Positions 3,457 to 3,703 of a DNA stretch of 10,482 nt are shown piece by piece. Source of the stretch: Stenomitos sp. (lineage in GTDB: Bacteria > Cyanobacteriota > Cyanobacteriia > Cyanobacteriales > Coleofasciculaceae); contig DATNQL010000706.1 of assembly GCA_036704025.1 (NCBI GenBank), positions 1 through 10,482 on the forward strand, read 5' to 3'. How positions within the stretch are numbered: the stretch's first letter is position 1; every line of letters begins with the position of its first letter. The translations under genes and the position numbers were made by a program. The notes under the pieces are model-generated. The model did not search any database. It saw only the letters and a list, made by a program, of their open reading frames with translations, and was not told the DNA's origin.

Positions 3457-3483
3457 TTCTCCGCGTCGGGAGCGTCCCCCTGT
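3457..3483 (+). repeat. Copy A of a 27-bp direct repeat, TCTCCGCGTCGGGAGCGTCCCC(C/G)TGTC, with looser similarity continuing ~15 bp beyond it.
   Basis: The 22-mer TCTCCGCGTCGGGAGCGTCCCC matches exactly at 3457-3478 and 3677-3698. After one mismatch, TGTC also matches, and partial similarity follows (TCT..C..CTA). An exact 22-mer recurring by chance in 10 kb is very unlikely (expected roughly 1e-6). The repeat contains a small GGGA-GCG-TCCC hairpin. Confidence 0.8.
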
Positions 3484-3676
3484 CTGGGTGTCTATCTCAA
3501 CTACTCTGTTTGAACGCAACTCGGTATCAGTCCATCGGTCAATCGTTAATACTTTTTATAAAAAGAAAACTCAGCCAAAAAACCTTTGTGCAAAATCCTA
3601 TTGTTGCATCCATATAAAGAGAAATATGATGTGGCTGTAGGTGCGGTCAAAACGAGTTGGTGATGTGCAGAAAATC

Positions 3677-3703
3677 TCTCCGCGTCGGGAGCGTCCCCGT
3701 GTC
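3677..3703 (+). repeat. Copy B of the 27-bp direct repeat. It ends 18 bp before the first ATG of the vault-protein ORF at 3722.
   Basis: Same 22-mer plus TGTC as copy A, 220 bp downstream and in the same orientation. The two copies sit in different reading frames of any overlapping ORF, so this is a DNA-level duplication rather than a protein-level one. Confidence 0.8.

Follow-up and report, generated by a model that had tools for sequence, protein, structure and literature searches.

We examined a whole 10,482-bp contig of a cyanobacterial metagenome-assembled genome (MAG), referred to here as the window, in which a 27-nt sequence is directly repeated upstream of a gene for a major vault protein (MVP). 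Very probably, this 27-mer is the GC-rich centre common to two distinct non-autonomous elements of about 100 bp, of the kind known as miniature transposable elements with inverted repeats (MITEs), that were inserted upstream of MVP. The repeat would then be ordinary mobile-DNA litter and not a vault-specific control or acquisition signal, and we describe the two insertions as low-copy, previously unnamed MITE-like elements with a common octamer-array core. Both were inserted in the same orientation within the 1.4-kb non-coding region (2371–3799) that separates the divergent genes for MVP and for a sensor resembling a methyl-accepting chemotaxis protein (MCP), and that holds both copies of the repeat (Table 1).

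Two small elements in the sensor–MVP spacer

A repeat search of the window recovered a direct repeat of 31 nt, identical at 29 of 31 positions and with a start-to-start spacing of 219, in which the 22-mer TCTCCGCGTCGGGAGCGTCCCC occurs exactly twice (3458 and 3677) and is absent from 200 shuffled sequences, even allowing three mismatches. This bears out the initial annotation in that the repeat exists and does not arise by chance, with the corrections that the 27-mer starts at 3458 instead of 3457 and that the spacing of 220 should read 219. One single-nucleotide polymorphism (SNP) and one additional unit, TGGGTGTC, in copy 1 distinguish the two copies, whose similarity exceeds 27 nt once this 8-nt unit is allowed. 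GC content is 64.5% in the core, 38.8% in the interior of the repeat and 39.1% in the remaining intergenic region; it is the GC-rich core, not the interior, that is the compositional outlier, and the AT-richness previously ascribed to the interior is not distinctive.

For comparison, orthologous loci were gathered via MVP homologues (L007 from Allocoleopsis sp., L008 and L009 from A. franciscana PCC 7113, and L010, L011, L012, L016, L017 and L018), together with L015, which is the same species as the window from a different sample. Orthologue alignments mark element 2 (family A) as a clear insertion. It is flanked by an exact 9-bp target-site duplication, TGTGGCTGT, whereas in L008, L011 and L016 the empty site ATGATGTGGCTGTGAA is uninterrupted and the 9-mer is found once; L015, an independent assembly, is filled like the window, with the same insertion and a few SNPs. 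Full-length homologues were found on a soil metagenome contig at an unrelated locus (L003:1602–1704), with inverted repeats GGGTGCGGTCA / TGACTACACCC that match at 9/11 positions and a 9-bp flanking duplication, (G/A)TAGGGACT, matching at eight of nine, and on the Brasilonema octagenarum plasmid pBOCT2 (L013:2942–3043), where a filamentous haemagglutinin gene follows closely downstream and the inverted repeats match at 13/14 positions (GGGTGTGGTCAWAA). A profile built from these three family A members, which stand for three independent loci in three organisms, recovers each of them at nhmmer E-values of 1e-29 to 1e-33. Folded as RNA or DNA, family A elements pair their inverted repeats as an outer stem and GTTGGT/ACCAAC as an inner one, with the core left unpaired (z-scores of -3.5 for L003, -4.7 for L013 and, for the window copy, which is more degraded, -1.3). 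Where a conserved structure of each repeat copy with its flanks had been thought possible, DNA folding gave no stable structure beyond this inverted-repeat pairing.

Its inverted repeats, target duplication, empty sites, homologues at unrelated loci and stem fold thus give element 2 the anatomy of a MITE. Both elements fall under the 300-bp size limit of MITEs (95 bp and 115 bp), the open reading frames (ORFs) of the region have no Pfam hit, and terminal inverted repeats are evident in element 1 itself and, for element 2, through its L013 and L003 homologues. The repeat, the inverted repeats, the target duplication, the empty sites and the homologues elsewhere are direct observations. Element 2 would have been inserted by a trans-acting DDE-type transposase making 9-bp staggered cuts, in an event apparently confined to the window's lineage. 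With its duplication it contributes 104 extra bp separating a conserved upstream block from the MVP start codon, by which the filled (window, L015) and empty (PCC 7113 and others) strains differ as a natural pair. We rejected a local duplication of copy 1 into copy 2 as the main explanation of the repeat, given that L003, at a different locus, combines this core with these arms.

A different MITE family (inverted repeat approximately CACTAGTGCAG; interior GCAGTTCGCGTAGCGTTCTCC...TTGTACAGTAAGCTTTTTA) lies within a few nucleotides of the element 2 site in L007 and L010 (equivalent to window c. 3625–3640) and also occurs in L011 (c. 4880–4985), elsewhere in the same intergenic region. Taken together with a further L011 MITE, which has the inverted repeat ATATGATGTCCG, these insertions make the sensor–MVP spacer a hot spot for small insertions.

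Element 1 (family B) has 22-nt inverted repeats that are 77% complementary, a score reached by 0.8% of shuffles (p about 0.008). BLAST searches against plasmids found homologues with closely similar arms on two PCC 7113 plasmids (L023:351–444 and L024:1491–1585), bringing the family B census to three loci, two of them in one strain. The L023 copy is a complete family B element within an annotated cas3 coding sequence (NC_019740), whilst the L024 copy is intergenic and its inverted repeat extends to about 27 nt. Element 1 would have arrived less cleanly than element 2, displacing about 131 nt of older sequence. The 128-nt segment that contains it has no detectable similarity to the 131-nt segment of L008, the local alignment score falling below the shuffle mean, and the L008-type sequence is also present at this position in L016, L007 and L010; the event was therefore a replacement and not a simple insertion. 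A possible decayed duplication (CAGATTCAT / CAGTCCAT) is too weak to be claimed. Logan, the source of contig L015, assembles with k = 31, and a de Bruijn assembler with this k stops 30–31 nt inside a multi-copy repeat that it enters from unique DNA. As L015 starts at window 3502, 30–31 nt inside the right end of element 1, there is a hint, though not proof, that element 1 is multi-copy in the L015 genome.

The ends of the replaced 131-nt segment (L008:c. 5716–5835; L016:c. 2630–2760) are faintly like the family A inverted repeat (GGTTGGGTCAAGAA ... TTTTGACCTACCC), and the earlier occupant of the element 1 site may itself have been a MITE, the match being too weak for a 2-mismatch search. A small ORF (window 3320–3454, plus strand) that begins MAGSL(L/S/M)IVA... 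and encodes a hydrophobic peptide of 22–44 aa retains its start and N-terminal half in the L008 and L016 equivalents; in the window its stop codon is lost and the frame continues into element 1. The sequence may code for a genuine small membrane peptide, or may be no more than conserved non-coding DNA.

Of the roughly 190-bp interior of the repeat, one part is the right arm of element 1 and another the left arm of element 2, with about 95 nt of native upstream sequence lying between them; on this alignment the interior is not the body of one element. More widely, the orthologue alignments resolve the intergenic region into a mosaic of well-conserved blocks and lineage-specific insertions. The repeats do not bracket a single unit, as had been supposed, since the native block between the elements (3544–3638) is conserved in orthologues that lack both repeats. 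This block contains the palindrome CTTTTTATAAAAAG, which is present as described but at 3552–3565 and not 3553–3566, and which is imperfect in orthologues (CTTTCTATAAAAAT in L008, TTTTTTACAAAAAT in L011). The block is a candidate MVP promoter or regulatory region on the strength of its conservation. A scan for promoter and terminator consensus sequences found sites no more numerous than in shuffles and none in the block; a promoter-like TTGTTG-18-TATGAT ending at the insertion site fell below the scan threshold and is not claimed.

These comparisons also bear on the proposals that the direct repeat is an attachment site or recombination scar left by an acquired MVP cassette, or that its copies are the two termini of one element of about 250 bp. 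A direct repeat some 220 bp apart does adjoin a gene of unusual phylogenetic distribution. Both copies, however, lie on the same side of MVP, each with flanking inverted repeats of its own, and about 95 nt of the interior is native and present in relatives without either repeat. The order of sensor, MVP, response regulator/receiver and aminotransferase is conserved across the clade, in Allocoleopsis-like genomes and beyond, and 2,699 MVP relatives, mostly from filamentous cyanobacteria, were found in the database at E <= 1e-50. MVP is therefore not a recently acquired cassette in this clade. Scar and termini alike are hardly credible, and the empty-site alignment refutes them. The initial annotation, in suggesting a small non-autonomous element, had named the right kind of sequence with the wrong geometry, in that the copies are the interiors of two elements of about 100 bp and not the ends of one of about 250 bp.

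A duplicated operator or leader element, with the copies serving as binding sites that regulate MVP transcription or translation, is likewise very improbable. Both copies do have the same orientation and lie no farther than 350 nt upstream of MVP, and each has a small hairpin-capable sequence (CTCC-N6-GGAG and GGGA-GCG-TCCC, read by eye). Neither copy, however, was found in the eight orthologous MCP–MVP loci from other lineages (L007–L012 and L016–L018), which keep the gene, its neighbours and the conserved non-coding blocks; among orthologues only L015 has them. The sequences do occur at loci without MVP, and each window copy forms part of an element that has inverted repeats at its ends and, in one case, a target duplication. 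The comparative data largely refute a regulatory role, and the repeat is evidence neither of a regulatory signal specific to vaults nor of a recent arrival of MVP.

The octamer-array core and its other contexts

Core-bearing sequences align as TCTCC, followed by units of 8–9 nt ending in GTC (TCCGCGTC, GGGAGCGTC, CCCSTGTC and, in some, TGGGTGTC), and then by (A/T)(G/A)TCTCAAC; the L003 core has an additional CCCATGTC unit. Elements 1 and 2 have a common layout of inverted repeat, short A/T-rich stretch, core array, (A/T)(G/A)TCTCA(A/G)C and other inverted repeat. Their left arms are not similar (p 0.32) and their right arms marginally so (p 0.02). The family B copies of PCC 7113 have shorter, pyrimidine-rich arrays without two blocks of the window copy, CGCGTCGGGAGC and GTCTGGG, and it is these two blocks that make the core of element 1 match that of family A. 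The two window cores would match either because their array has a common ancestor or because arrays have been homogenised between MITE families of the genome, and not through any function tied to MVP.

Searches for the exact core returned few matches. Among 185,579 species genomes, a set that does not include the source genome, the exact 21-mer matched once, in Microseira at a non-MVP locus. An exact 20-mer matched five times in JGI metagenomes, four of the five being chance matches inside GC-rich, non-cyanobacterial sequence. The initial annotation had named beforehand, as the outcome that would leave the motif a generic repeat, a common dispersed repeat without a positional link to MVP; the positional link is indeed absent, but the repeat is rare, with its one match in 185,579 species genomes. 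An Rfam scan of the whole window (E-value mode) gave nothing at the repeat and only a chance snoRNA match at 2033–2060, and a tRNA/tmRNA scan gave none. Scans of viral contigs with two degenerate end patterns yielded zero matches, a protein-database search with the translated MITE frame, for spurious ORFs over other copies, yielded no candidates, and a literature search for the 14-mer returned only an unrelated yeast paper.

Several observations weigh against the reading of two MITEs. Neither the Brasilonema plasmid nor the BLAST searches of plasmids yielded an autonomous transposon whose inverted repeats match; in the search for a parent insertion sequence that has the inverted repeat GGGTGTGGTCAAAA, no matching pair surrounds a transposase gene on the 190-kb Brasilonema plasmid or in any of the other loci compared, and no longer matches to the elements were found among 72,556 plasmids. 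As a tentative lead, the GGG ends and the 9-bp duplication may point to the ISKra4/ISMich2 family, which has GGG ends and duplications of 8–9 bp. Copies in the source genome can be counted on this one contig only, and the exact core is rare, with a single genuine metagenome match beside the single species-genome match. The three family B copies (element 1, L023 and L024) show no visible target duplication, and element 1 has no clean empty site, having replaced other sequence instead. In the window the inverted repeats of element 2 are degraded and not significant alone (p 0.2 against shuffles). Finally, elements 1 and 2 resemble each other more in their core than in their arms, whereas the ends are the best-conserved part of classical MITEs; simple common descent does not account for this in full.

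This last point leads to another explanation, in which the core is a self-contained module (TCTCCGCGTC-GGGAGCGTC-CCCSTGTC...) resembling a small dispersed repeat (SDR), moved or copied between MITE or hairpin scaffolds that are themselves unrelated, whether by gene conversion over short tracts, by template switching or by some unknown mechanism of insertion. The window copies would then match because what spreads is the module and not the element as a whole. In support, elements 1 and 2 and Microseira sp. BLCC-F43 (L001) share 22–38 nt almost exactly in three different arm contexts, with left arms that are not detectably similar. The Microseira core has about two differences from copy 1 over about 38 nt (by eye) and lies among quite different repeats, at a locus flanked by MBOAT and glycosyl-hydrolase-like genes and lacking MVP. 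The L011 MITE with inverted repeat ATATGATGTCCG and a TTA/TA duplication, which lies about 1 kb upstream of MVP, contains a related core, and on a PCC 7113 plasmid (L014:1453–1541; NC_019739) a core-like octamer array without arms occupies the linker of an annotated dnaX gene (DNA polymerase III gamma/tau). These further occurrences are significant against a model of family A only, at an E-value of about 1e-6. The converse, the same arms with different cores, is seen in the PCC 7113 family B copies.

Against such modularity, all cores are arrays of one 8–9-nt unit type, from which slippage and common MITE ancestry could give the same picture, the examples number only about eight, and no case was found of the core alone inserted into otherwise identical sequence. 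We consider the modular explanation unlikely, though less so than an operator or a scar. If true, it would mean modular exchange in filamentous cyanobacteria outside Nostocaceae, the family to which reports of such modules are confined. The better conservation of the core across arm types than of the arms is unusual for MITEs and leaves room for homogenisation by gene conversion as well as for SDR-like modularity, and the pairing of the same core with different arms and of the same arms with different cores is a small hint of array exchange among MITE families in large cyanobacterial genomes. As a separate observation, the dnaX array has an inverted partner array upstream.

Likeness to known repeat systems

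Short tandem repeats of 7–9-nt units, such as the STRR heptamer repeats, are found in the non-coding DNA of heterocystous and filamentous cyanobacteria. The window core differs in having only three to four imperfect units, which form part of an element with inverted repeats at its ends, and the sequences of its units presumably differ from those of STRR1–3. SDRs (SDR1–8) were reportedly described in Nostoc punctiforme by Elhai et al. in 2008. As described, they are like the core in being a near-identical module of 21–27 nt in varied contexts in filamentous cyanobacteria and in their association with short tandem repeats. The hosts of the window-type core, by contrast, are Coleofasciculaceae, Microseira and one Nostocales plasmid, and element 2 acts as a whole transposed unit with a 9-bp duplication. 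PMC5861425 and PMC4390886 cite the SDR work, and PMC5861425 gives SDRs as reported in Nostocaceae only.

MITEs already described in cyanobacteria include Nezha (Anabaena/Nostoc), the MaeMITEs (Microcystis) and those of Lin et al. 2011 (reviewed in PMC3184786). The window elements show most of the features expected of MITEs and resemble these as intergenic, non-coding sequences of about 100 bp with terminal inverted repeats, flanking direct repeats in the case of element 2 and a long hairpin fold, and in that mobility is inferred from filled versus empty orthologous sites. Nezha is larger, at about 130–170 bp, and its inverted and direct repeats are common to ISNpu3, whereas no parent insertion sequence was identified for the window elements. 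A further difference from cyanobacterial MITEs is that the interior of the window elements is an octamer array better conserved between families than the ends, with an exact core that is rare in genome and metagenome scans. Correia/NEMIS elements are MITEs that lie in transcribed regions and alter expression. As with the expression-altering ERIC/IRU elements (PMC3184786), element 2 is an inverted-repeat element placed between a conserved upstream block and a start codon. By analogy with these, element 2 could form a long stem if transcribed, and might affect MVP expression.

Repetitive extragenic palindromic (REP) sequences, REPINs and tagged palindromes are, like the window elements, short, GC-rich, hairpin-capable and intergenic with occasional intragenic copies, and the core has CGTC motifs. 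Tagged REPs have a GTAG/CGTC tag, stems of 5–13 bp (8–9 bp in the CGTC type), short loops and head-to-head dimers, and a survey of REPs and tagged palindromes does not report CGTC repeats in Cyanobacteria (PMC3733652, PMC3116915). We rejected this identity for the core, whose stems are only 4 bp and whose copies are in direct orientation without head-to-head dimers, in a window that has no RAYT gene. A CRISPR-like mini-array was rejected on account of the 219-bp spacing and the single copies elsewhere; the sole cas gene seen, in L023, merely hosts an element.

The MVP gene and its neighbourhood

The MVP of the window is a complete homologue with Vault repeats and a shoulder domain, although most records name it 'colicin uptake protein', and cyanobacterial MVP homologues have been described previously (bioRxiv 10.1101/872010; PMC3762200). 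Its nearest homologues (886–894 aa) align over 99–100% of the 892-aa product from the ATG at 3800, those of 892 aa at 100% alignment coverage, and gene calls at the orthologous loci start at the same ATGAAT; the true start, judged from these homologues, is therefore this ATG and not the one at 3722. The second copy of the repeat does end 18 bp before the first MVP ATG, as initially annotated, but that ATG (3722) is not the start codon, and copy 2 thus ends 96 nt upstream of the real MVP start. Element 2 supplies the spurious upstream ATG. For annotation, the 5' end of cyanobacterial MVP belongs at ATG 3800, with the in-frame ATG upstream coming from a transposon end.

Table 1. Coordinates of the repeat, the two elements and the genes of the window
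Feature	Position	Strand	Details
Sensor gene	start near 2370	-	Runs off the left window end; orthologues carry HAMP, GAF and MCPsignal
Element 1	3418–3532	+	115 bp, MITE-like, family B; inside the 128-nt segment 3416–3543
Left terminal inverted repeat of element 1	3418–3439	+	GATTCATACGCAGTTGCATTCA; 22 nt, 77% complementary; conserved in L023 and L024
Core copy 1	3454–3484	+	31-nt repeat; 27-mer at 3458–3484; extra 8-nt unit TGGGTGTC runs to 3492
Right terminal inverted repeat of element 1	3511–3532	+	TGAACGCAACTCGGTATCAGTC; conserved in L023 and L024
Native conserved block between the elements	3544–3638	+	Contains palindrome 3552–3565; conserved in L008, L011 and L016, without both elements
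Left copy of 9-bp target-site duplication	3630–3638	+	TGTGGCTGT; once only in empty-site orthologues
Element 2	3639–3733	+	95-bp MITE, family A; consensus inverted repeat GGGTGTGGTCAWAA
Core copy 2	3673–3703	+	31-nt repeat; 27-mer at 3677–3703
In-frame ATG from right end of element 2	3722–3724	+	Lengthens the mechanical ORF by 26 codons; not a conserved start
Right copy of 9-bp target-site duplication	3734–3742	+	TGTGGCTGT
MVP gene	3800–6478	+	892 aa; Pfam Vault, Vault_2/3/4 and MVP_shoulder
CheY-like receiver	6605–6967	-	
Class-V aminotransferase	7777–9006		
Dephospho-CoA kinase	8989–9615	-	

Seven copies of the HIP1 octamer GCGATCGC in the window, against 0.09 expected, confirm its cyanobacterial origin. 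The NCBI label for the MVP of this contig is 'Stenomitos sp.' (Leptolyngbyaceae). The protein is 97% identical to that of Allocoleopsis sp. and 95% to that of A. franciscana PCC 7113 (95–98% to Allocoleopsis-type sequences), and the gene order of the window agrees with Allocoleopsis-type genomes (Coleofasciculaceae); the taxonomic label or the binning of the MAG may be wrong.

Downstream of MVP, most relatives have, between the MVP and receiver genes, an ORF of 589–597 aa for which no Pfam hit is recorded (L007:8783–12018, L008:8934–10703, L016:5753–7546 and L017:12967–14754), and L007 also has an IS605-type OrfB/TnpB gene (Cas12f1-like_TNB) there. The window (6479–6604) and L011 are without both the ORF and TnpB and have about 125–220 nt in their place. 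Upstream, a strongly conserved non-coding block lies 600–900 nt from MVP (window 2880–3200), with no Rfam match in the whole-window scan. Its consensus fold has an energy of -43 kcal/mol and a 10-bp stem (TTGTGGAGAT/ATCTCCACAA), with almost no covariation. A motif in two parts is common to this block and to the sequence preceding the class-V aminotransferase gene (7500–7640), namely T(A/G)GAGATGCACT-N5-TGTAAG..TG.AGAT followed about 75 nt later by TACGTNA..TC.AC.ATAA...AAT. Both motif copies are kept in the orthologous loci (L008:5263 and 11648; L011:5318 and 9749), and the shared block is a candidate cis-regulatory module common to the two genes or a candidate non-coding RNA.

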